From: Parcubacteria group bacterium
GTDB lineage: Bacteria > Patescibacteriota > Patescibacteriia > UBA2169
DNA: 64,000 bases
Reading direction: 5' to 3'
Assembly: GCA_016181765.1 (NCBI GenBank)
Contig: JACOYR010000004.1
Span: 201,853-265,852, forward strand
Part shown: one piece after another, positions 2,921 to 13,213 of the stretch
Numbering within the stretch: the stretch's first letter is position 1
Layout of the letters: each line of letters begins with the position of its first letter
Made by a program: the position numbers and the translations under genes
Notes under the pieces: generated by a model
What the model saw: the letters and a program-made list of their open reading frames with translations, nothing else
Databases searched by the model: none
Told to the model about the DNA's origin: nothing

Positions 2921-3106
2921 CCCACATCCTCCTGGTTGCGTGGTGAGGGAAAACTACCGATGAACGCCACGATTGTGGCGCCGAAAGAACTGCACAAACT
3001 ATAGTAGCAATACTAACCAAACTACCAGACAACGGGCGCGCTGTCAATATGCGGCCGCGCCGCGCGAGCGCTTGTATTGCGCGCGAACAGCTCACTGTGC
3101 TACGAT

Positions 3107-4357
3107 ATGCGTATCATTCCTATGGCACACGGCGCGCCGCACGCACAATCCAATCAGGAGGAACAGGGCCGCGACCACAAGTCCTTGGGCACGCAGCTTG
3201 ATTTGTTCGTGTTCAATGATCTGGTGGGGCCCGGGCTGCCGCTATGGACGCCCAAGGGAACCATCCTGCGCGAGGAGCTGGATAATTTCGTGTGGAGCCT
3301 GCGCAAGAAGCACGGGTACCAGAAGGTGGAAATTCCGCACCTGGCCAAAAAAGATTTGTACGAAACCAGCGGGCACTGGGCAAAGTTCAAGGATGATTTG
3401 TTCCGCGTCAAAACGCGCGAGGGCCACGAGTTCGCCATCAAGCCCATGAACTGCCCGCACCACACGCAGATCTACAGCCGCCATCCCCAGAGCTACCGCA
3501 ACCTGCCGGTGCGCTACTGCAACACCACCATGTGCTACCGCGACGAGCAGACCGGCGAGCTCAACGGGCTCGCGCGCTTGCGCGCGTTCACGCAGGATGA
3601 TTCGCACGTGTTCTGCCGCACTAGCCAGGTGGAAGAAGAATTTTTGAAAATCTGGGACATTGTTGATGAGTTCTATTCCGCGTTCGGGTTTAAGCTCTCA
3701 CCCACGCTCTCGTTGTCCGACCCTAACAACATGGGCGCGTATCTGGGTGATGAAAAGCTTTGGAAGCAGGCAGAGGATGCATTGCGCAGCGTGGCAAAGA
3801 AGCGCAACGTGCAAGCTCCGGAAGTCCTCGGCGAGGCCGCGTTCTACGGACCGAAGATTGATTTTGCGGCAAAGGATTCGCTGGGCCGGGACTGGCAGGT
3901 GGCAACCATCCAGCTGGATATGAACATGCCCGAGCGCTTTAACTTGGCGTGCGTGAATGAGAAAGGCGAACCAGAGCGCATTGTGATGATCCACTACGCG
4001 GTGATGGGCGCCATTGAGCGGTTCCTCGCCATTTTACTGGAACACACGGCTGGCGTGTTCCCGGCGTGGCTCGCGCCCATCCAAATTAGCGTTGCCACGG
4101 TTTCCAACGAAAAGCACCTGGTGTACGCGCAAAAGCTTGCGAATGAACTTTCGGCCGCCGGAGCGCGCGTTTGGGTTGATGATTCAGATGAGTCAGTCGG
4201 CAAAAAGGTGCGAGCGAGCGAGCAGCAGAAAATCCCCTACACGCTCGTGATCGGGGACAAGGAAATGGCTGGCAAAAAACTCGCGGTCCGCGCTCACGGC
4301 GAACGAGACACGGTTGAAATGACGCCGGACGAGTTGGTTGCAAAACTCAAGCGATAA
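3107..4357 (+). CDS. thrS: threonyl-tRNA synthetase, catalytic core plus anticodon-binding domain only (no N-terminal TGS or editing domains)
   Basis: The motifs LDLF…KPMNCPHHTQIY…FTQDDSHVFC and a class II core followed by an anticodon-binding domain are present. The ORF opens at 3077, but the first Met at 3107 or 3122 is the more likely start. The protein is only about 415 aa. Confidence 0.9.
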   Translation: MRIIPMAHGAPHAQSNQEEQGRDHKSLGTQLDLFVFNDLVGPGLPLWTPKGTILREELDNFVWSLRKKHGYQKVEIPHLAKKDLYETSGHWAKFKDDLFRVKTREGHEFAIKPMNCPHHTQIYSRHPQSYRNLPVRYCNTTMCYRDEQTGELNGLARLRAFTQDDSHVFCRTSQVEEEFLKIWDIVDEFYSAFGFKLSPTLSLSDPNNMGAYLGDEKLWKQAEDALRSVAKKRNVQAPEVLGEAAFYGPKIDFAAKDSLGRDWQVATIQLDMNMPERFNLACVNEKGEPERIVMIHYAVMGAIERFLAILLEHTAGVFPAWLAPIQISVATVSNEKHLVYAQKLANELSAAGARVWVDDSDESVGKKVRASEQQKIPYTLVIGDKEMAGKKLAVRAHGERDTVEMTPDELVAKLKR

Positions 4358-5343: not shown

Positions 5344-6132
5344 TCACAGCGGGCTCTGAATCGCGGCCAGAGCAGATCGCGCCACCTTGGTGTACACCTG
5401 CGTGGTGGTAAGCCGCGCGTGGCCCAAGAGCTCCTGGATGTACCGAATGTCGGTGCCGTTCTCCAGCAAGTGCGTGGCAAACGAATGGCGCAAGCTGTGG
5501 CAGCTTGCCTGTTTTTTGATGCCCGAATCTTTGAGCGCGTGGGCAAATATCTTTTGAGCCGACCGTTCAGTCAGCTTCCCGCCGCGGCTGCTTTCAAACA
5601 CAAAATCGCGTGCGTCTTTTTTTGCAACATACCGCGCAAGCGGCGCGCTGACTTTTTCAGAAAACAAGGTAACCCGGTCTTTCCCTCCTTTGCCGCCGCG
5701 AACCATCACGGCTTGGTTATCAAAATCCAAATCCCCCACCTTGAGATTCACGGCTTCGGAAACCCGCAACCCGGCCGAGTACATCATCCCGAGCAGGAGC
5801 TTGTGCTTGGCGCTTTTGATGGTTCCGAGCAATAACCGCACTTCTTGTTTGGAGAGCACCACCGGAAGTTTTTTTGATGATTTGGCGCGCGGAATGGAAA
5901 CAAAAAATCTCCGCTTGAGCACGGAGCCAAAGTAAAACTTAAGGGCGCTGTACACGGTATTGAGTGTTGACGCGGACTTTCCCGCGTCCGCGAGCGCTTC
6001 CAGATACTTTCGGACATCAGCCGTAGTGGTTGCCCGGGGGCCTTTGCCCGCCGAGCGCAAAAAGCCTTTGACGTTCGTTATATACGAACTTTGGGTCATT
6101 GGGCTAAACCCCCGCAGTTTCATCTCCTGCAC
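5344..6132 (-). CDS. tyrosine site-specific recombinase (XerC/XerD/IntI branch)
   Basis: The C-terminal catalytic motifs HSLRHSFATHLLENGTDIRYIQELLGH…TTQVYTKV are present. The segment KKLPVVLSKQEV…GLRVSEAVNLKVGDLDFDNQAVMVRGGKGGKDR resembles XerD and IntI. At 262 aa it lacks the IntI-specific insertion. It is divergent from the adjacent AT-rich island. Confidence 0.9.
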   Translation of the reverse strand: MQEMKLRGFSPMTQSSYITNVKGFLRSAGKGPRATTTADVRKYLEALADAGKSASTLNTVYSALKFYFGSVLKRRFFVSIPRAKSSKKLPVVLSKQEVRLLLGTIKSAKHKLLLGMMYSAGLRVSEAVNLKVGDLDFDNQAVMVRGGKGGKDRVTLFSEKVSAPLARYVAKKDARDFVFESSRGGKLTERSAQKIFAHALKDSGIKKQASCHSLRHSFATHLLENGTDIRYIQELLGHARLTTTQVYTKVARSALAAIQSPL

Positions 6133-6179
6133 GAATTTCTCAAAGCCTTCCGTAAAAACAACCAGTTCGTATATAACTA

Positions 6180-6207
6180 GTTATAAGAAATTTAATTTGA
6201 AAGCCCT
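6180..6207. repeat. left copy of a 28-bp imperfect inverted repeat (gttataagaaatttaatttgaaagccct) flanking the deoxyribosyltransferase-like gene
   Basis: Its reverse complement pairs with 6633-6660 at 25 of 28 positions. Confidence 0.7.
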
Positions 6208-6237
6208 AAGAGGAATTAACAAGTAAATGCATGAAAT

Positions 6238-6630
6238 ATGAAAATAGTCATCTGCGGTTCTAGACGTTTCTTTGACGACATTCGCGACTTGGAACGCAAG
6301 TTGCGCGAGAACGGTCATATTGTCTTGGGACCCATACTCAACAGAAATAAATCTATCAGCGACCTGCCGAGTGATCTTAAAACATACGCTTTTTTAGGAT
6401 TGACGCTTCACCATTTTGAATTTATCCGCAAAGCCGACATCTGCTTCATGTACAACAAAGATGGTTATCTTGGCAACAGTGGTACTTTGGAGCTTGGTTT
6501 TGTGGTCGCCTGCGGTATTCCAATATACGCTCTGAATGAAGATAAAGACGAGGTTTGCAGGAATGTACTCTTTGACTTCGTGGTTAATGACATTGATGAA
6601 TTCGTTAAAATTGTTAATTCCAATAAATGA
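6238..6630 (+). CDS. nucleoside 2-deoxyribosyltransferase-like / SLOG-fold protein
   Basis: The 130-aa product starts MKIVICGS…, and the segment GYLGNSGTLELGFVVACGIPIYAL matches the catalytic-Glu region G.G.ELG(F/Y)A of the Nuc_deoxyrib_tr family. The gene is AT-rich (about 33% GC) and is bounded by inverted repeats. Confidence 0.65.
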   Translation: MKIVICGSRRFFDDIRDLERKLRENGHIVLGPILNRNKSISDLPSDLKTYAFLGLTLHHFEFIRKADICFMYNKDGYLGNSGTLELGFVVACGIPIYALNEDKDEVCRNVLFDFVVNDIDEFVKIVNSNK

Positions 6631-6632
6631 CA

Positions 6633-6660
6633 AGGGCTTTCAAATTAAACATCTTATAAC
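6633..6660. repeat. right copy of the 28-bp inverted repeat; it overlaps the start of palindromic element A copy 1
   Basis: The sequence agggctttcaaattaaacatcttataac is the reverse complement of the left copy at 6180-6207. Confidence 0.7.
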
Positions 6661-6839
6661 ACTGAATATGCGGTTCAAAAACATTGCCCATTAGATACGA
6701 TTGGTCGCAATGTTTTTTCACCCAAATGGCGCTTCTGATATCCGCGATTGATGTTGTCTATACTGTGCATCTGATGACCACACTCCTACTGATTAAGACG
6801 GCGCCACTTCGCATATTCAGGAACGTTGCGACGAAATAA
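6656..6839 (+). repeat. palindromic element A, copy 1 (about 184 bp): outer IR cactgaatatgcgg/cgcatattcag, inner perfect 11-bp hairpin aaaaacattgc/gcaatgttttt, 3' tail gaacgttgcgacgaaataa
   Basis: It is 5'-identical over about 68 bp to copy 2 at 11488, and it shares its architecture and 3' tail with copy 3 at 12786. Confidence 0.7.
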
Positions 6840-6980
6840 TTTTTTTTATAAGTTTTTCTCAATCGGCTTTTTAAGAAAAGGAATAAAATAAGTTTTTTAA
6901 GAATTAGGATTTTAGGAGGGGTAAAGCCAAGGTGGTTTTCTCCGCTTCGCTCCGAAAACGATTCATTAATTAATTTATGT

Positions 6981-7439
6981 ATGTCAAAAATTAATGTAGT
7001 TTATACGCCCAAAATTGATGAAGAAGAAAAAAGAATATTTGAAGAAGTATTCGGAAAAAATAAAGTAGTATTTGGGGAATATAAAATTAAAGGAATAACA
7101 TGGGGCGCATTTGACATTCAAATAATAATAGACGCCTTGAATGACCCCACCATAACAGCCTTACTACACGGCACAGAATTTGCGCGTTTAATTGCCGTAT
7201 TGGTTAAAAAATTATTTAGCAGAAATACTAAAAAAATAATGGATAATAAATCAAGACCCAGATACACGACTTTGGTTATAAGAAAAGAAACTAGTTCTGT
7301 CGTAGTATCAAATGTTAATCCCGGCAACAAAATTCTTATTTCTAAAATCACGGCTAATTTCGAGGAAATTAAAAAACAGTTTGAGAGCGGTGATGATAAA
7401 TATACAGATGAAAAACTTAATAACTACTTGGATAATTAA
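6981..7439 (+). CDS. hypothetical protein (152 aa)
   Basis: It is an AT-rich ORF in an operon-like arrangement with the next two ORFs, which are spaced 5 and 4 bp apart. Confidence 0.5.
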   Translation: MSKINVVYTPKIDEEEKRIFEEVFGKNKVVFGEYKIKGITWGAFDIQIIIDALNDPTITALLHGTEFARLIAVLVKKLFSRNTKKIMDNKSRPRYTTLVIRKETSSVVVSNVNPGNKILISKITANFEEIKKQFESGDDKYTDEKLNNYLDN

Positions 7440-7444
7440 AATTT

Positions 7445-7651
7445 ATGAAGTCAAAAATAATTAAAAGCAAACGACTAAAGGATCGCATAGTGGAGATAAT
7501 TGAGTATAAAGATGATTTTGGGAAAATTGTAAATTATTCTGTTATTAACGTAAACCATGGCGAAGGGGTCATTGCGGGTGCCGGTAAATTAGAAGAAAAT
7601 AATTTTTCTAATGAAGAGGAAGCAATGATATTTTTTAATAATCAAAATTAA
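7445..7651 (+). CDS. hypothetical small protein (68 aa)
   Basis: Its spacing to the neighbouring genes suggests translational coupling. Confidence 0.4.
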   Translation: MKSKIIKSKRLKDRIVEIIEYKDDFGKIVNYSVINVNHGEGVIAGAGKLEENNFSNEEEAMIFFNNQN

Positions 7652-7655
7652 ATCT

Positions 7656-10136
7656 ATGCAAAAACAGTTCACAATCTATTTTATTCTTATTTTTATTCTA
7701 GGATTAACTTCGCTTAATTTTATTCAAAAAGTAAAAGCGTCAGATATTCCTGTGCCTATTGCCTACTGGAACCTTAACGACCAGGATGCTATAAATGCTG
7801 GCTTAGCATCCGATCAAATGGGTAACTATAATATGCAAATAGTTGACGGTACTTGGGATAGTAATGCATATGATGGCGGTTCTGTTGTTTTTAGTTGCAT
7901 GAAAACTGATTATAATGCTTGCGGGGCAAAAATCAGTAACGCCCTGCCAGAATTGAGCAAGTTTACTATATTATACAGAGTAAAATTAAAAGGTCCTATT
8001 AACAATACTCTTCGCCGCATCGTTGATTCAACGGGAGGATTTCATACATATTTTGACGGAAACTCAATCATGATTTCAGGAAACGGCATGAAAAATAGTA
8101 TTGATGAACCAATCAGTGTCAGCGAAAATTGGTATCATTTCGCAGTTGTTTACGACAATGCCGATGGTTATTATTTTTATAAAAATGGAAATTTAGCTGA
8201 ATACTCTACGACATCAGGCAATAAGATAAGCAGTGGGATCTGGTCCTTTGGGTATGGTGGTGGTGTCCAGGGCGATGCGAGTGCAAATATTATCCAACTT
8301 GATGAAATAAAAATATATGACACAGCACTTACCTCAGATCAAATTTTAGAAGAAAATAATTACAACGAAATAAGGTGTAAAGCAGATATTTACCAATATG
8401 GTGAGTGGGGCTCATGTCAGCCTGACGGCACAAAAACCAGAACTGCGACCAAAACGTTTAACTGTCCTTATACAAATAATGAACCAGAAAATGCAACAAC
8501 AAGTTGTAGCTATATTCCGCCTACTTGTACTTCTTGGCAATACTCAAACTGGTCGCAGTGTTCGAATAGTGGCCAACAAATAAGAACTATTATTTCATCT
8601 TCGCCAAGTGGCTGTGTTGATGGAAAGCCAATTTTAAATCAAAGTTGTAATTATACTCCTGTTTGTACAGTCAATAATTGGTCGTGTGATAATTGGTCGG
8701 GTTGTTCTTCTGGTGGAACTCAAACCAGATCCTGTAATAAAATTTCAAATTGCGAGGGTGGAATTTCCGCCCCGACCACCTCTCAATCCTGTACCTACAC
8801 TCCGACTTGTTCGGCAGACACTTGGCAGTGTGAAAATTGGGGGTCTTGCTCGCCACAAGGAATACAGGCAAGAAGCTGTACCAGAACCTATGACTGCCCG
8901 TCCGCTGAAACAGCGGCCCCGGCGACATCGCAATATTGCGTAGCCCCAAACCAGCCCAAACAACAATCACCGACCGAGGATTTGGGCATAGTAAACCAAA
9001 GCACAATTATAAAATCCACAGTTAAGCTTGTTTGTCCCGTAAATAGCACCACCGCAAGCCAAGGTTCGGGCACAGTTATCAATTCAACCGGCTTAATTTT
9101 GACCAATAAACACGTCATTGACGATACAGCCGGATGTCTAGTCGGGTTTATTGATGATTATGGCGATGAACCGTATTTTGGCGACAGGCAGATCGCTGAT
9201 ATTTACAAAATATCCAGCGATGCTGATGTTGCTGTTTTGAAATTGAGAAATCCAAGCAACAAGCCGCTAACCTCGATCAGTATTTCTCAAAGCAACAGCA
9301 ACAACATCAAATTGGGAGAAATACTTACTACCTACGGCTATCCGGCAAAATTCGGCACAAAAATAACCTACACCAGCGGCGATTTTAGCGGCGTGGACGG
9401 CAATTATCTGAAAACAACCGCTATTATTGAGCACGGCAATTCCGGCGGAGGCGCGTATTTAAAAAATGGCGCGTTTATCGGCATTCCAACCGCCGTAGTA
9501 AAAGGCAGTTTAAACTCCTTGGGCTATTTACTGTCAATCAATAAAGTAAACAGCTGGCTTAATAATTCTATAGCATATAACTACAATAATAATGACAATA
9601 ATTATTCGCGGGTTTCGGCTTTGTTAGAAGATATAAATTTGAACACTCTTGATTCTTTGGGCCTGTTCTTGCCTGGAGATGAGAAAAATCTTAAAACCCA
9701 AACAGAAAGCCAAAGCGTAATAGCCGAAGAAAAATTGTTGACCACCAAAATTGACAGCAGTTTATCAAGAAGAGTGAGTGGAAATATTCTGTTGCAGGTG
9801 GAAAAGAAAGGCGAAGGGTGGTATGTATATCCGGATAATAAAAAGAAGTATTATTTAGGCCGTCCGGCAGACGCTTTTAGCATTATGCGGAATTTGGGAT
9901 TGGGAATCAAACACAGCGAACTTAGCATTTATCTCAATTCAAAATTTCCCAGCAGATTATCCGGGAAAATATTATTGGATGTTGAGCAAAAAGGCGAAGC
10001 GTATTATATCAATCCAAACGACTTAAAGGGCTACTACCTTAGCAAGCCAGCAGACGCATTCAGAATTATGCGAGAACTCGGGCTGGGAATCACTAATGAT
10101 GACATAAGGAAAATTGACGTTGGTGAGACAGAATAA
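7656..10136 (+). CDS. secreted multidomain protein with a signal peptide, a LamG/ConA-like lectin domain, three thrombospondin-type-1-like Cys repeats, a trypsin-like serine protease domain and two C-terminal repeats of about 60 aa
   Basis: The N-terminus has the hydrophobic segment MQKQFTIYFILIFILGLTSLNF. The LamG-like region reads NWYHFAVVYD…LDEIKIYDTAL. The WxxWxxCSxxGxQxR repeats are CTSWQYSNWSQCSNSGQQIR, WSCDNWSGCSSGGTQTR and WQCENWGSCSPQGIQAR. The TNKHVI segment (His) and the GNSGGGAY segment (Ser) indicate a trypsin-like protease. Tandem repeats at the C-terminus read GKILLDVEQKGEAYYINP… and SGNILLQVEKKGEGWYVYP…. Confidence 0.8.
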   Translation: MQKQFTIYFILIFILGLTSLNFIQKVKASDIPVPIAYWNLNDQDAINAGLASDQMGNYNMQIVDGTWDSNAYDGGSVVFSCMKTDYNACGAKISNALPELSKFTILYRVKLKGPINNTLRRIVDSTGGFHTYFDGNSIMISGNGMKNSIDEPISVSENWYHFAVVYDNADGYYFYKNGNLAEYSTTSGNKISSGIWSFGYGGGVQGDASANIIQLDEIKIYDTALTSDQILEENNYNEIRCKADIYQYGEWGSCQPDGTKTRTATKTFNCPYTNNEPENATTSCSYIPPTCTSWQYSNWSQCSNSGQQIRTIISSSPSGCVDGKPILNQSCNYTPVCTVNNWSCDNWSGCSSGGTQTRSCNKISNCEGGISAPTTSQSCTYTPTCSADTWQCENWGSCSPQGIQARSCTRTYDCPSAETAAPATSQYCVAPNQPKQQSPTEDLGIVNQSTIIKSTVKLVCPVNSTTASQGSGTVINSTGLILTNKHVIDDTAGCLVGFIDDYGDEPYFGDRQIADIYKISSDADVAVLKLRNPSNKPLTSISISQSNSNNIKLGEILTTYGYPAKFGTKITYTSGDFSGVDGNYLKTTAIIEHGNSGGGAYLKNGAFIGIPTAVVKGSLNSLGYLLSINKVNSWLNNSIAYNYNNNDNNYSRVSALLEDINLNTLDSLGLFLPGDEKNLKTQTESQSVIAEEKLLTTKIDSSLSRRVSGNILLQVEKKGEGWYVYPDNKKKYYLGRPADAFSIMRNLGLGIKHSELSIYLNSKFPSRLSGKILLDVEQKGEAYYINPNDLKGYYLSKPADAFRIMRELGLGITNDDIRKIDVGETE

Positions 10137-10259
10137 AAATATCCAATTATTTGTAGACATCTTTCTTGTCTTATTCTAATATATATGCTATTATTAGAAT
10201 AAGCTAATTCTTTATTATAACCGTTAGAATAACGAAACTCCTTATTCTAACCGCAAAAT

Positions 10260-11360
10260 ATGGCTAACCAACCCTTTAATCCGCCCGCCTTACCGCCAAA
10301 AATCAACTATGAGCCACTGATTGACCATATTATCAGGGCCCACCGCGCCCTGGCCGGGCTTGATTCCCTGCTTGGCGCTTTACCCAACCCGAACCTATTG
10401 GGCCGAACCATGCAAACCAAAGAAGCGGTGGAAAGTTCAAAAATAGAGGGTACCCAAGCCACGATCAACGAAGTCTTGGCGTATGAAGCGGAACCGGGGA
10501 AAAAGGAAGATGCCAAGAAAAAACAAGACATAAACGAGATTATAAATTACCGCCAGGCTTTGGACTTGGGAGTAAAAAGTTTAACCACACTGCCGTTGTC
10601 CGAAAACTTGATTAAAAAACTGCATGCCACCCTGCTTAAATCCGGCCGGGGCGCCAATAAAGCGCCGGGTGAATTTAGAAAAATACAGGTGTACATCGGC
10701 AAGCCCGGAGCCACTATTTCCGAAGCGTCATATATTCCCCCGGCTGCTAACGGCATAATCTCCTTATTCAGCAATTTGGAAAAATACCTTAATAGCGGCG
10801 ATGAAAAAGACAAATTAGTGCAAATCGCGGTGGCCCATTATCAATTTGAAGCTATCCACCCTTTTTTGGACGGCAACGGCCGGGTCGGCCGGCTGATTAT
10901 CTCTCTGTTTTTGTACGAGAAAAAATTATTATCGCACCCGTTTCTGTATTTGAGCGAATTTTTTGAGGAGCACCGCCGGGATTATTACGAATTATTGAGC
11001 AATGTGAGCGCCAAGCAGGATTGGGAAAGCTGGATAAAATTTTTCTTGAACGCCCTGGCCACCCAAGCCCAAAAAGCCGAAGCCATTGGCAAGGAAATTC
11101 TGAAACTCCACAGCGGCTATAAAGAAAAAATTATAGCCATCAACTCCATGTATGCCAATAACTTATTGGACGCGATTTTTATTCGGCCGATTTTTACCAC
11201 TGCCAGCCTGCGGCCGCACGTTAAAATGAAAAATACCCAGACATTTTTCAGCTTAGTGGCAAAATTCGCCGCCGCCGGAATTTTAGAAGAAGCCAACCCC
11301 AAAAAAAGACGCAATAAAGTTTATGTCTTCACGGAATTAATGAAGCTTTTGAATAAATAA
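10260..11360 (+). CDS. fic: Fic family AMPylase (Fido) with an N-terminal inhibitory motif
   Basis: The canonical HPFLDGNGRVGR motif is present. The upstream SSKIEG matches the (S/T)xxxE(G/N) auto-inhibition motif of class II Fic proteins. Confidence 0.9.
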   Translation: MANQPFNPPALPPKINYEPLIDHIIRAHRALAGLDSLLGALPNPNLLGRTMQTKEAVESSKIEGTQATINEVLAYEAEPGKKEDAKKKQDINEIINYRQALDLGVKSLTTLPLSENLIKKLHATLLKSGRGANKAPGEFRKIQVYIGKPGATISEASYIPPAANGIISLFSNLEKYLNSGDEKDKLVQIAVAHYQFEAIHPFLDGNGRVGRLIISLFLYEKKLLSHPFLYLSEFFEEHRRDYYELLSNVSAKQDWESWIKFFLNALATQAQKAEAIGKEILKLHSGYKEKIIAINSMYANNLLDAIFIRPIFTTASLRPHVKMKNTQTFFSLVAKFAAAGILEEANPKKRRNKVYVFTELMKLLNK

Positions 11361-11447
11361 AGAGTTTTGGGCAAAGGGCATTCACCCCTAACCCCTCTGC
11401 CCCTTGCCCAAAACAAAAAATAAATTTAAGATTTAAGAAAAAAAAGC
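11361..11447 (+). repeat. repeat B, copy 1: terminator-like hairpin ttttgggcaaagggca…tgccccttgcccaaaa plus an AT-rich tail, directly after fic
   Basis: It is about 90% identical over its first 53 bp to 12658-12745. Confidence 0.7.
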
Positions 11448-11487
11448 CTACCAAAAGACATCAAAAAAAATATTTTTAGAACAGCGT

Positions 11488-11605
11488 ATAACACTGAATA
11501 TGCGGTTCAAAAACATTGCCCCTTAGATATGATCGGTCGCAATGTTTTTTCACCCATATTTGCCTCCGCTACGCTTTGGCAAACATCGCATATTCAGGAA
11601 CGTTG
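11488..11605 (+). repeat. palindromic element A, copy 2
   Basis: The 5' 68 bp are near-identical to copy 1, and it ends with tcgcatattcaggaacgttg. Confidence 0.7.
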
Positions 11606-11943
11606 TAACCGCTCAACAAGACCGTAGAGACCAAAACGATTATTTCCATCAGCAAATAAACATATTCGTAAAAAATTTGAGTGACGGCAATGAGGTGCAA
11701 ATCCTGTCCACCCAAGGAGATGTAAGAGAAACGGGATGGGTTAGTGCAAGCTTTAGTCCTGACAGCAAATACGGCGTATACAATCTAAACAAGCAGCTCT
11801 GGATTCTTGACGCTGAAACTGGAGAAAAAACACAGCTTACAACCGAGTTGAGAGAGTACCGCGAACCTCGTTGGTCTACGGACGGAAATAAAATTATCTA
11901 TACTACGGGTGAAGAAGTAAGATTAATTAAACTGACATTTTGA
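11542..11943 (+). pseudogene. fragment of a TolB-like PD40 beta-propeller protein (probable gene remnant)
   Basis: The translation …SDGNEVQILSTQGDVRE…FSPDSKYGVYN…REPRWSTDGNKIIYTT contains PD40-type repeats. There are only about 100 aa of the domain, and the ORF's 5' end runs into repeat element A, so no credible start exists. Confidence 0.35.
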
Positions 11944-12032
11944 TTCTATCAAATACATATATTTCCCTTGAACCTGCCCATGAGGCGGGCAGACACCCCA
12001 TTAGTTCCCCTCCGCCCTTTACCTATCAATTC

Positions 12033-12563
12033 ATGAAACCAACACCAAACAACTTCGCCTACATTGACGCCGCCAACTTGCACCGGGGCGTTATTCAGCT
12101 TGGCTGGCAATTGGATTACAAGAAATTCCGGATCTGGCTGAAAGAGAAATACGGCGTTAGCCAGGCCTATCTTTTCATCGGTCTGGTGCCCAAGCACAAA
12201 GATTTATACACCAGCTTGCAGGAAGCCGGCTTTACCCTTGTCTATAAAGAAATAACCTATGACGGCGAGGGCAAGGTCAAAGGAAATTGCGACGCTGATT
12301 TGGTGCTTAAAACCACCCGCGACGCTTACGAAAACTCGTTTGCGCAAGCGATTTTGGTTTCCAGCGACGGCGATTACGCCGGCTTGGTTAAATTTTTGCT
12401 GGAAAGAAACAAGTTCATGGGCATTATTTCCCCGTCAGTTTCGGCCAAATGTTCGGTGCTATTGAAACGGACCGGCGCGCGCATAGCGTACATCAATGAC
12501 CAGAGGTCCATATTGGAAATTACAAAAGGCGGCCAAAAAGAAAAAGCCCCCGGCCGGGACTAA
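12033..12563 (+). CDS. NYN-domain (LabA-like) putative ribonuclease
   Basis: Conserved acidic residues of the NYN fold are seen in FAYIDAANL…GNCDADLV…VSSDGDYAGLV. The ORF opens at 11940, but the Met at 12033 is the likely start. Confidence 0.8.
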   Translation: MKPTPNNFAYIDAANLHRGVIQLGWQLDYKKFRIWLKEKYGVSQAYLFIGLVPKHKDLYTSLQEAGFTLVYKEITYDGEGKVKGNCDADLVLKTTRDAYENSFAQAILVSSDGDYAGLVKFLLERNKFMGIISPSVSAKCSVLLKRTGARIAYINDQRSILEITKGGQKEKAPGRD

Positions 12564-12657
12564 CCCCGGCAAGGGTCTTTTTCGTAGTGATAAATACAGT
12601 ATAGCAGTTTGAGGCAAAAAGTCAATATAACTTATAAACAGCCCAAAAACAGACAAA

Positions 12658-12745
12658 GAGTTTTGGGCAAAGGGCATTCACCCCTAACCCCTCTGCCCTT
12701 TGCCTAAAACGGAAAAAACTTATTTTAAAATTTAAGAAAAAGCCG
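12658..12745 (+). repeat. repeat B, copy 2 (after the NYN gene)
   Basis: It carries the same hairpin as copy 1 with one compensating mismatch, and the same aaatttaagaaaaagcc tail. Confidence 0.7.
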
Positions 12746-12785
12746 ATTGAAGAAAAATTCAAAGAAAAAAAATTACATCGCGCAA

Positions 12786-12910
12786 CAGCGCATATGAGGT
12801 TCGGGAAAAAGCGATAATTTGATATAATCAAGGTGTCGCCTTTCCCCTCTCCCAAACCCGCCAAGGAGGCGGGCTTCTCATATGCGCGAACGTTCTGCGA
12901 AATAAAATAA
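12786..12910 (+). repeat. palindromic element A, copy 3 (diverged): outer IR gcgcatatgag/ctcatatgcgc, 3' tail gaacgttctgcgaaataaaataa
   Basis: Its architecture and conserved 3' tail match copies 1 and 2. Confidence 0.55.
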
Positions 12911-12926
12911 TTTTATTCAATTTTTT

Positions 12927-13183
12927 ATGAGTATAGAAAGACCTGAAAACATACAAGAACAGCTTCGGGAAATTTTTTTAAAGGAAGAATATACCTGTCG
13001 CCGGAACAATTAAAAATCATTGATTTCTTGGACCAGATGGGGCGCATTGTCGTTAAAGACGCGGAAGAGATATTGTCCTGCCCGCGGCGCACGGCGCAAT
13101 TGCACTTGCAAAAATTAAAAAAGATTAAAATGATTAAAGCCACCGGCAAAGGCAAATCCACCGCCTATATCGCCAATAAATAA
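12927..13183 (+). pseudogene. winged-HTH regulator (…LSPEQLKIIDFLDQMGRIVVKDAEEILSCPRRTAQLHLQKLKKIKMIKATGKGKSTAYIANK) split by a frameshift in a T7 tract
   Basis: The ATG at 12927 gives MSIERPENIQEQLREIFLKEEYT and then a stop. Frame +2 (read relative to that ATG) continues from 12947 as an HTH with the typical GKG(K/R)ST.Y ending. The two frames join at aatttttttaaagg. Confidence 0.4.
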
Positions 13184-13213
13184 TAAGGGTGTTTAAGGCG
13201 CGCGGTATGTATG

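Follow-up and report, generated by a model that had tools for sequence, protein, structure and literature searches.

A putatively secreted modular serine protease from Patescibacteria, encoded within an integron-like cassette array

Domain architecture and family of the protease

We analyzed a 64,000-nucleotide (nt) stretch of a Parcubacteria group bacterium contig (JACOYR010000004.1, assembly GCA_016181765.1), hereafter the window, which contains a gene for a putatively secreted modular serine protease of 826 amino acids (aa). The gene lies in a region of low GC content, together with a divergently oriented tyrosine recombinase gene, three attC-like sites and a candidate defence gene of the Fic family. 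The protein is already catalogued at NCBI: a 100% identical entry on a 281-kb contig is named [quoted passage not shown] (MAG—metagenome-assembled genome), and the neighbouring genes carry locus tags HYT31_03545-55. The following features were assigned to the protease gene.

7656..10136, + strand: open reading frame (ORF) of 826 aa plus stop codon, single, intact and complete; predicted secreted modular serine protease
7656..7739, + strand: predicted Sec signal peptide, aa 1-28, cleavage after A28 (VKA followed by SD), from hydrophobicity and the AXA-like V-K-A
7950..8345, + strand: Laminin_G_3 domain (ConA-like lectin/glucanase, PF13385), aa 99-230, Pfam profile
8376..8516, + strand: Cys repeat 1, aa 241-287, four-Cys type, diverged; family hidden Markov model (HMM), domain E 1e-14
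8517..8660, + strand: Cys repeat 2, aa 288-335, four-Cys type; family HMM, part of the AlphaFold2 (AF2) model
8661..8804, + strand: Cys repeat 3, aa 336-383, six-Cys type; family HMM, part of the AF2 model
8805..8948, + strand: Cys repeat 4, aa 384-431, six-Cys type; family HMM, columns C385-C428 invariant
9063..9485, + strand: Trypsin_2/S1C (HtrA-like) protease domain (PF13365), aa 470-610, Pfam profile
9111-9113, 9225-9227 and 9441-9443, + strand: codons of the catalytic residues H486, D524 and S596, from alignment with DegQ
9765..10133, + strand: two tandem C-terminal repeats of 61-62 aa, aa 704-765 and 766-826, from self-comparison and AF2

The first-pass annotation of this DNA, made from the sequence without database searches, had read the ORF at 7656-10136 as an 826-aa secreted, modular protein with a LamG-like domain and a His…GNSGGG serine protease, and all of these elements hold. 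The sole strongly hydrophobic segment comprises aa 5-23 (Kyte-Doolittle about 2.2-2.4) and is followed by V-K-A and S, so that hydrophobicity and cleavage motif both fit a cleaved Sec signal peptide. The Laminin_G_3 match lies above the Pfam gathering score of 27.6 bits (45.8 bits, E 8.9e-12), and so does that to Trypsin_2, whose profile is covered over its full length (positions 1-144 of 144; E 9.1e-17, 62.6 bits, cutoff 27.6). Alignment with DegQ (3stj), which includes the HV, D[IV]A and GNSGG motifs, places the catalytic triad at H486 (LTNKHV), D524 (DVAVLKL) and S596 (GNSGGG). The triad, whose completeness had been left to a later check, is complete by this alignment, and its residues are invariant across 32 homologues.

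With a profile score above threshold, the His-Asp-Ser order and a G-x-S-G-G motif, the domain can be classified among the S1C/Trypsin_2 proteases. It shares with HtrA, DegP and DegQ (MEROPS S1C) a chymotrypsin-fold domain, the order of catalytic residues, G-N-S-G-G and export from the cytoplasm, but it does not appear to be an HtrA/DegP protease proper. The Pfam scan of the protein shows no PDZ family, the model of its C-terminus has no PDZ-like structural match, and in NCBIfam only HtrA/DegP-type models match, all far below their cutoffs (TIGR02037, 58.9 versus 416.2 bits). Furthermore, in contrast to these enzymes, a LamG domain and a putative stalk of Cys repeats precede the protease, a Patescibacteria-specific tandem module follows it, and the gene lies on a cassette instead of in the core genome.

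A homology search returned 257 proteins at E<=1e-3, the best 120 of which were surveyed for their architecture. In every one of them, between one and eight Cys repeats directly precede the protease; 67 also carry the C-terminal repeat pair. The N-terminal region varies between 0 and 408 aa and contains LamG, TIG, SH3_3, SLH or PG_binding_1 domains in different members. These comparisons point to a common plan, in which a signal peptide and a swappable N-terminal binding domain are followed by one to eight Cys repeats, a PDZ-less S1C protease and, usually, a pair of ~61-aa repeats. Named proteins among the 120 are chiefly from Patescibacteria or Parcubacteria; when one genome per species was scanned, 531 relatives came to light. 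The MAG labels of close relatives are Parcu-, Kuenen-, Falkow-, Magasanik-, Gribaldo-, Staskawicz-, Morani-, Nomura-, Buchanan- and Komeilibacteria, and labels from outside the Patescibacteria occur among them solely on 2-5-kb contigs. Judged by this distribution, the family appears to be widespread in, and largely specific to, Patescibacteria (bacteria of the candidate phyla radiation, CPR), where it is common and uncharacterised. Homologue loci have a GC content of 29-47%; the closest homologue (80% aa identity) has the protease gene alone in common with the window, and its neighbours are of the toxin-antitoxin type.

Two further loci show variations around the protease gene. A 710-aa relative (metagenome locus L118, 972-3104) has the same protease and C-terminal tandem module and no Cys repeats; it belongs to a cassette of several genes, which is bordered by attC sites at 32-124 and 4114-4242. 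On the contig of a homologue (L001), a second copy of the final 122 nt of the protease gene (2169-2290 and 2934-3055; 84% identity) lies beyond a ParE-type toxin-antitoxin pair, which suggests that the pair was inserted at the 3′ end of the gene.

The C-terminal tandem repeats of about 60 aa had also been recognised in the first pass, and they share 31 of 61 identical residues. In the AF2 model of this module (predicted local distance difference test score, pLDDT, 88.8; predicted template-modelling score, pTM, 0.84), each repeat folds as beta3-alpha-beta-alpha. This tandem pair also forms the C-terminus of at least 534 further Patescibacteria proteins, in which it follows SH3_3, CAP, SNase, Big_7 or TSP3_bac domains or a region of unknown type. 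Because it terminates so many secreted proteins, the module is probably an envelope-anchoring or sorting device. In the automatic JGI annotation, several proteins that consist mainly of this module (for example P0276 and P0287) are labelled “ribosomal protein L30/L7E”, which is probably a spurious weak match.

The Cys repeats and their relation to thrombospondin and midkine folds

The region between the LamG and protease domains had been described as three Cys repeats with the eukaryotic thrombospondin type 1 signature W-x2-W-x2-C. The family HMM finds four (aa 241-431), each about 48 aa long, the first two with four cysteines and the last two with six. Their actual spacing is W-x4-W-x2-C, and the second Cys of C-S-x-T-C-G is missing; the conserved core reads W7-x-[Y/C]9-x2-W12-x2-C15-S-x2-G19-x-Q21-x-R23. 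Repeat 4 is the most conserved and always abuts the protease in homologues.

The module occurs 494 times across the 120 closest homologues. When 1.84 billion cluster representatives (50%-identity clusters) were searched exhaustively with a profile, 2,984 contained the repeat at E<=1e-3, of which 1,138 reach E<=1e-10. Given this recurrence, the repeats are far beyond chance. Most of 138 further representatives listed start with a signal or lipoprotein-like leader, and they carry 3-19 repeats each. Partner domains among 75 representatives scanned with Pfam include Big_13, cytochrome c, beta-helix, cohesin, SH3_3, fn3 and PG_binding, and one repeat-bearing protein is annotated as deriving from an Aenigmarchaeota archaeon. 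The eukaryotic flavour first attributed to the repeats has therefore to be given up: they appear to form a large, native and uncatalogued prokaryotic family of ~3,000 clusters at 50% identity, a breadth that argues against recent capture from a eukaryote. Occurrences beyond Patescibacteria (P0124, P0139, P0176, P0209) comprise, besides the Aenigmarchaeota-annotated protein, lipoproteins with c-type cytochrome domains. A word-indexed homology search with a two-repeat profile had returned 6 proteins only, owing to its prefilter, and was superseded by the exhaustive search.

The two subtypes are mutually homologous (hhalign, 98%) and differ by a pair of cysteines. Across 895 unique repeats from 258 proteins, both extra cysteines are present in 296 and both absent in 595, with 4 exceptions, which indicates that they pair with each other. 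As they sit on the W-x-C and R-x-C segments (columns 11 and 27), this pair implies a disulfide that would join the predicted strands A and B.

Thrombospondin type 1 repeats (TSRs) are regarded as equipment of the eukaryotic extracellular matrix. The Cys repeats resemble them as small, disulfide-bonded, extracellular modules of ~50 aa used in tandem, and in the core W-S-x-C-S ... G-x-Q-x-R. In Pfam scans, however, the 193-aa four-repeat region has zero matches even at E<=10. Repeat 2 alone gives a sub-threshold match to TSP1_ADAMTS (E 0.0055, 17.4 bits versus a cutoff of 23.8), and repeats 3 and 4, each scanned singly, match no Pfam family. Among 37 diverse four-Cys relatives, seven match TSP_1 and seven TSP1_ADAMTS, all below threshold (best E 0.006); two of 49 six-Cys relatives match TSP1_ADAMTS, again below threshold. 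When all PDB sequences were searched with profiles of both subtypes, neither retrieved a TSR or midkine chain. We also aligned the subtypes with eight genuine TSRs (thrombospondin-1, properdin) that had been verified against PDB entries. Here, the four-Cys type reached an hhalign probability of 28% (24 columns, P 6e-4), its alignment opening a gap of three residues precisely at the TSR “xTC” (“vtC”), and the six-Cys type one of 15%.

The sequence hallmarks of TSRs are likewise absent or altered. Instead of W-x2-W(-x2-W), the repeats have W7-x-[Y/C]9-x2-W12, of which the last Trp alone is in the TSR register, and instead of C-S-x-[ST]-C-G-x-G they have C15-S-x2-G19, without the “T-C-G” cysteine. 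Strand B carries one near-invariant arginine, R23 in Q-x-R, and the next alternate position is I/V or Cys, whereas TSRs have R-x-R. Finally, the repeats have four or six cysteines in a framework that differs from that of TSRs, whose six cysteines pair 1-5, 2-6 and 3-4, and they are prokaryotic. By these profiles and motifs, the repeats do not appear to belong to TSP_1 or TSP1_ADAMTS (PF00090/PF19030).

The predicted structure gives a more favourable, if not decisive, picture. An AF2 model of repeats 2 and 3, built from a 54-sequence alignment of homologous tandem pairs, has a pLDDT of 93 and consists of short antiparallel beta-strands. Foldseek retrieved nothing from the PDB at E<=1e-3 (best E 0.27), but about 24 of the top 35 matches are TSR or midkine-type chains, among them midkine-b (2luu, the top match), properdin, C6, Sema5A TSR3-4, MIC2 TSR6, Unc5A and pleiotrophin. 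The match to MIC2 TSR6 has a template-modelling (TM) score of 0.61 normalised to the 49-residue target; normalised to the query, TM is about 0.3 for the two-repeat model.

The C-terminal domain of midkine and pleiotrophin (PTN_MK_C, PF01091), itself a TSR-like fold, shares with the repeats a four-Cys pattern (C-x10/11-C ... C ... C), a start of the form aromatic-x-aromatic-x2-W-x2-C and a basic residue on the strand that follows. Seven of 75 repeat-bearing proteins reach whole-protein PTN_MK_C matches with E down to 5.7e-12, but these scores are sums of short motif matches (P0209 reaches 46 bits with 0 individually significant stretches). The query protein has no PTN_MK_C match in Pfam scans, hhalign gives 5.8% probability for the repeat against this domain, and the heparin-binding basic cluster is lacking. 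With no single stretch above the single-domain profile threshold, membership of this family, too, appears unwarranted.

The thrombospondin reading of the first pass thus finds partial support in the predicted fold, whose neighbours are mostly TSR and midkine chains, and fails at the level of Pfam thresholds and sequence hallmarks. We consider a three-stranded TSR/midkine-like fold likely, or at least plausible, on the basis of the model, and common ancestry with TSRs possible but unproven. The label “thrombospondin-like” should give way to a more cautious one, namely an uncatalogued Cys repeat of bacteria whose fold is probably TSR/midkine-like. We found nothing in the literature on TSR-like repeats in Patescibacteria.

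Alternatively, the module could be an independent bacterial disulfide-rich repeat whose likeness to TSRs and midkine is convergent or an artefact, an explanation that we find possible, if doubtful. Small Cys-rich beta-hairpin domains look alike, AlphaFold may lean towards known folds, and the evidence for a TSR-like fold consists of one AF2 model and Foldseek matches at E>=0.27. Taken individually, each statistic is non-significant, whether the Foldseek E-value, the TM score of the query or the hhalign probabilities (28, 15 and 6%); to this can be added the empty PDB profile searches, the summed nature of the PTN_MK_C scores and a cysteine framework unlike that of TSP1. On the other hand, independent weak signals converge: the sub-threshold Pfam matches are nearly all to TSP1-clan families or PTN_MK_C, and TSR and midkine chains, which make up a small fraction of the PDB, dominate the structural neighbours. 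The single-domain match to MIC2 TSR6 also speaks for a TSR/midkine-like fold, and the W...W and Q-x-R motifs on adjacent strands, together with the A-B disulfide, suit the TSR architecture.

The cassette array around the protease gene

Apart from the protease gene, the low-GC region and its border comprise the following features.

5344..6132, − strand: tyrosine recombinase (XerA/integron-integrase-like), divergent from the cassette array, NCBIfam
6650..6833, + strand: attC-like site copy 1, 5′ boundary of the protease cassette, GTT at 6825-6827; covariance model 73.5 bits, E 1e-16
6981..7651, + strand: two orphan ORFs of 152 aa and 68 aa upstream of the protease gene, with gaps of 5 nt and 4 nt; ORF call
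10260..11360, + strand: Fic-domain gene (Fic_N and Fic, Pfam), SoFic-type defence candidate; PADLOC SoFic E 2.5e-114, 380 bits
11482..11610, + strand: attC-like site copy 2, 3′ boundary of the protease cassette, GTT at 11602-11604; covariance model 84.4 bits
11940-12563: NYN-domain gene, after a 133-aa ORF
12776..12900, + strand: attC-like site copy 3, end of the next cassette (PD40 fragment and NYN gene); covariance model 80.9 bits

The first-pass annotation had called the gene island-encoded and probably horizontally acquired. This is confirmed by the GC content, which is 40.3% at about 6150-13200 and 55.5% in the rest of the window, and the island can be resolved into an integron cassette array. 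With a divergent recombinase, three same-strand attC-like sites and the cassettes between them, it has the layout of an integron-like platform. No tRNA gene was found at the island flanks.

The recombinase passes the NCBIfam model NF040815 (XerA/integron integrase; 229.8 bits versus a cutoff of 220) and remains below threshold for TIGR02249 (integron integrase), which it matches in two stretches (211.6 versus 265). It is 262 aa long in the window and 275-286 aa in other assemblies, against 315 positions in the TIGR02249 model, and probably lacks the IntI-specific insertion. In six metagenome loci, an attC array is accompanied by a divergently oriented full-length homologue of the recombinase (42-47% identity). 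Five independent Logan assemblies contain 68 extra bases at 6150/6151 (L141 5845-5912), with an integrase start codon (MKQSKGGEGFEKF...); their absence from the window copy is either a deletion or an assembly artefact.

The ends of the attC-like element resemble R′′ (RYYYAAC) and R′ (GTTRRRY) boxes. Rfam contains no match to the element, yet its structure is reflected in several measures. The single-stranded DNA fold of copy 2 has a z of −4.5, and copy 3 shows compensatory changes in an 11-bp stem. Across 77 sites, 90.7% of stem cells are paired, compared with 67% in shuffled and at most 54% in slid alignments; double changes occur in 18 of 21 pairs, and the covariation score is 0.569 versus 0.153 when shuffled. 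In metagenome contigs, the covariance model detects same-strand arrays of up to ten copies at 0.3-1.5 kb spacing, and an exact 27-base attC pattern is present in 56 such contigs.

The sites bound three cassettes of 0.65, 4.8 and 1.3 kb. In cassette 1, the R′′ box complement is exact (GTTATAAG at 6180-6187 versus CTTATAAC at 6653-6660). These positions are the outer 8 nt of a 28-nt inverted repeat (6180-6207 and 6633-6660; 93% complementary), which brackets a 130-aa nucleoside-deoxyribosyltransferase-like ORF. The protease occupies the second cassette (6826-11602), together with the two orphan ORFs and the Fic gene; with filters off, the covariance model finds no further attC inside it. The orphan ORFs have no match in Pfam, NCBIfam, PADLOC or PHROGs, form clusters of sizes 2 and 1 and are not conserved beside homologues. 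We rejected them as conserved partners of the protease, the closest homologue's own 152-aa neighbour being unrelated. Their co-transcription with the protease gene is plausible, since the gaps are only 4-5 nt; a promoter and terminator scan remained at chance level.

Several repeated or palindromic sequences accompany the downstream genes. Shortly upstream of the Fic gene, at 10160-10250, palindromic motifs (TTAGAATAAG / CTTATTCTAA) recur, among them a 28-nt inverted repeat (10194-10250); the motifs look like an operator. A 69-nt GC-rich hairpin occurs twice (11352-11420 and 12648-12716; 90% identity), directly after the Fic and NYN genes and ~130 nt upstream of attC copies 2 and 3, so that the two cassette 3′ ends share ~250 nt. 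The 133-aa ORF at 11542-11943 matches PD40 and DPPIV_N weakly. Since its start, as annotated, falls within attC copy 2, it is probably a truncated gene remnant inside cassette 3.

The likeness to integrons comprises a recombinase divergent from the array, ORFs pointing towards their own attC, and same-strand arrays of structured 100-180-nt sites with RYYYAAC-like 5′ and GTTRRRY-like 3′ boxes and stem covariation, as well as cargo of foreign GC content that includes a defence gene. Differences from known integrons are the short recombinase (262-286 aa), which a XerA-type model fits instead of TIGR02249, and the protease cassette of 4.8 kb with four ORFs. Nothing was found in the literature on this integron type.

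A competing account of the low GC content is that the segment belongs to another organism's integron and was mis-assembled onto the 55%-GC genome across near-identical attC repeats. Copies 1 and 2 share 93% identity over a stretch of 80 nt, which is where independent short-read assemblies come apart: in five runs, the Logan contigs stop at window position 6684, and window 6660-11388 is found as a separate contig of 4,729 bp. Near-identical attC variants exist in other metagenome contigs, and the protease cassette starts with GTTGCGAC, to which the R′′ box of copy 2 (CGTATAAC) is no complement. For these reasons, the cassette order, and even the membership of the segment in this genome, could be an assembly artefact; the link from cassette 1 to the protease cassette is known from the MAG contig alone. 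Nevertheless, we judge mis-assembly unlikely. The host genes, integrase and cassette 1 are contiguous in five independent assemblies, where the latter two are joined to high-GC genes (tRNA synthetase, cupin) at 99.96-100% identity. Moreover, attC sites belonging to one family border the segment at either end, which is what a cassette of this integron should show, and the separate contig is drawn from the same sample set (SRR121134xx).

Proposed role and alternatives

Patescibacteria are tiny episymbionts that rely on other cells, and the tools with which they attach and capture nutrients are likely to be surface proteins. To our knowledge, almost none of these surface proteins has been characterised. 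The explanation that we favour, and regard as reasonably probable, is that the protein is a Sec-exported, surface-tethered, modular extracytoplasmic serine protease of a Patescibacteria family, which arrived as integron cassette cargo. The gene would then have been acquired from a lower-GC Patescibacterium. After export and cleavage of the signal peptide behind A28, the C-terminal tandem module, which is common to hundreds of otherwise unrelated secreted Patescibacteria proteins, would tether the protein to the cell envelope. The four Cys repeats (two four-Cys, two six-Cys), each presumably a small three-stranded module of TSR/midkine-like fold, would together make up a rigid and elongated stalk, with the LamG domain at its tip binding a glycan or protein ligand. 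The H486/D524/S596 protease could cut surface or environmental proteins, either to supply nutrient peptides or to remodel the surface of a host or partner. Such a binding-plus-cleaving device, a surface-tethered adhesin-protease, is the role that seems most likely to us.

Several points weigh against this explanation, in addition to the assembly concerns and the single structural model of the repeats discussed above. The evidence for an anchor is the position and promiscuity of the C-terminal module, which has no significant fold match in the PDB and no Pfam or PHROGs family. A four-ORF cassette of this length is unusually large for an integron, and the classical role of HtrA-type proteases is housekeeping quality control. 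The domain composition, the intact triad, the family membership and the location in a cassette are observed; anchoring, the stalk role, the ligand and the substrates are what we infer beyond them.

Accordingly, one could see in the protein an envelope quality-control protease of the HtrA/DegP type with housekeeping duties and no adhesion or host/partner role, as its best NCBIfam and PDB sequence matches are DegP, DegQ, DegS and HtrA. This is improbable: the protein scores well under all HtrA equivalog cutoffs and has no PDZ domain, its gene lies on a cassette of foreign GC content beside mobile or defence genes and not envelope-stress genes, and the N-terminal domains of the family are swappable binding modules (LamG, TIG, SH3, SLH, PG_binding). 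Least credible of all is that the Cys repeats are genuine TSP1 repeats from a eukaryote and the protein mimics host extracellular-matrix proteins, for although the local motif, the best Foldseek matches and sub-threshold Pfam matches almost exclusively to TSP_1, TSP1_ADAMTS and TSP1_spondin are all of TSR kind, no repeat reaches a Pfam threshold, PDB profile searches and hhalign do not recover TSRs with confidence, the repeats have neither the spacing of WxxW nor the second cysteine of CSxTCG and appear to lack RxR, and the thousands of prokaryotic clusters have four- and six-Cys subtypes of their own and many bacterial domain partners.

A further-reaching proposal, which we put forward tentatively, is that the Cys repeat represents an ancient prokaryotic branch of the TSR/midkine fold that serves Patescibacteria and other bacteria as a rigid stalk of surface proteins, and that Patescibacteria trade the proteases among themselves in multi-gene cassettes, on a distinct class of integrons with a short XerA-like integrase and highly conserved attC sites. 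If the repeat is truly related to TSRs, the origin of the fold would move into bacteria. Independently of this, the family offers a defined, testable architecture of swappable binding head, disulfide stalk, protease and shared C-terminal module. Both the Cys repeat and the C-terminal tandem repeat are abundant, have no above-threshold match in Pfam-A or NCBIfam and yield confident models, which makes them good structural targets. The cassette context suggests that integron recombination can mobilise such surface proteases in CPR genomes, beside defence genes like SoFic. We also considered whether the protease itself acts in defence and rejected this: its PADLOC matches span the generic protease domain only, and the protein is secreted and disulfide-rich.

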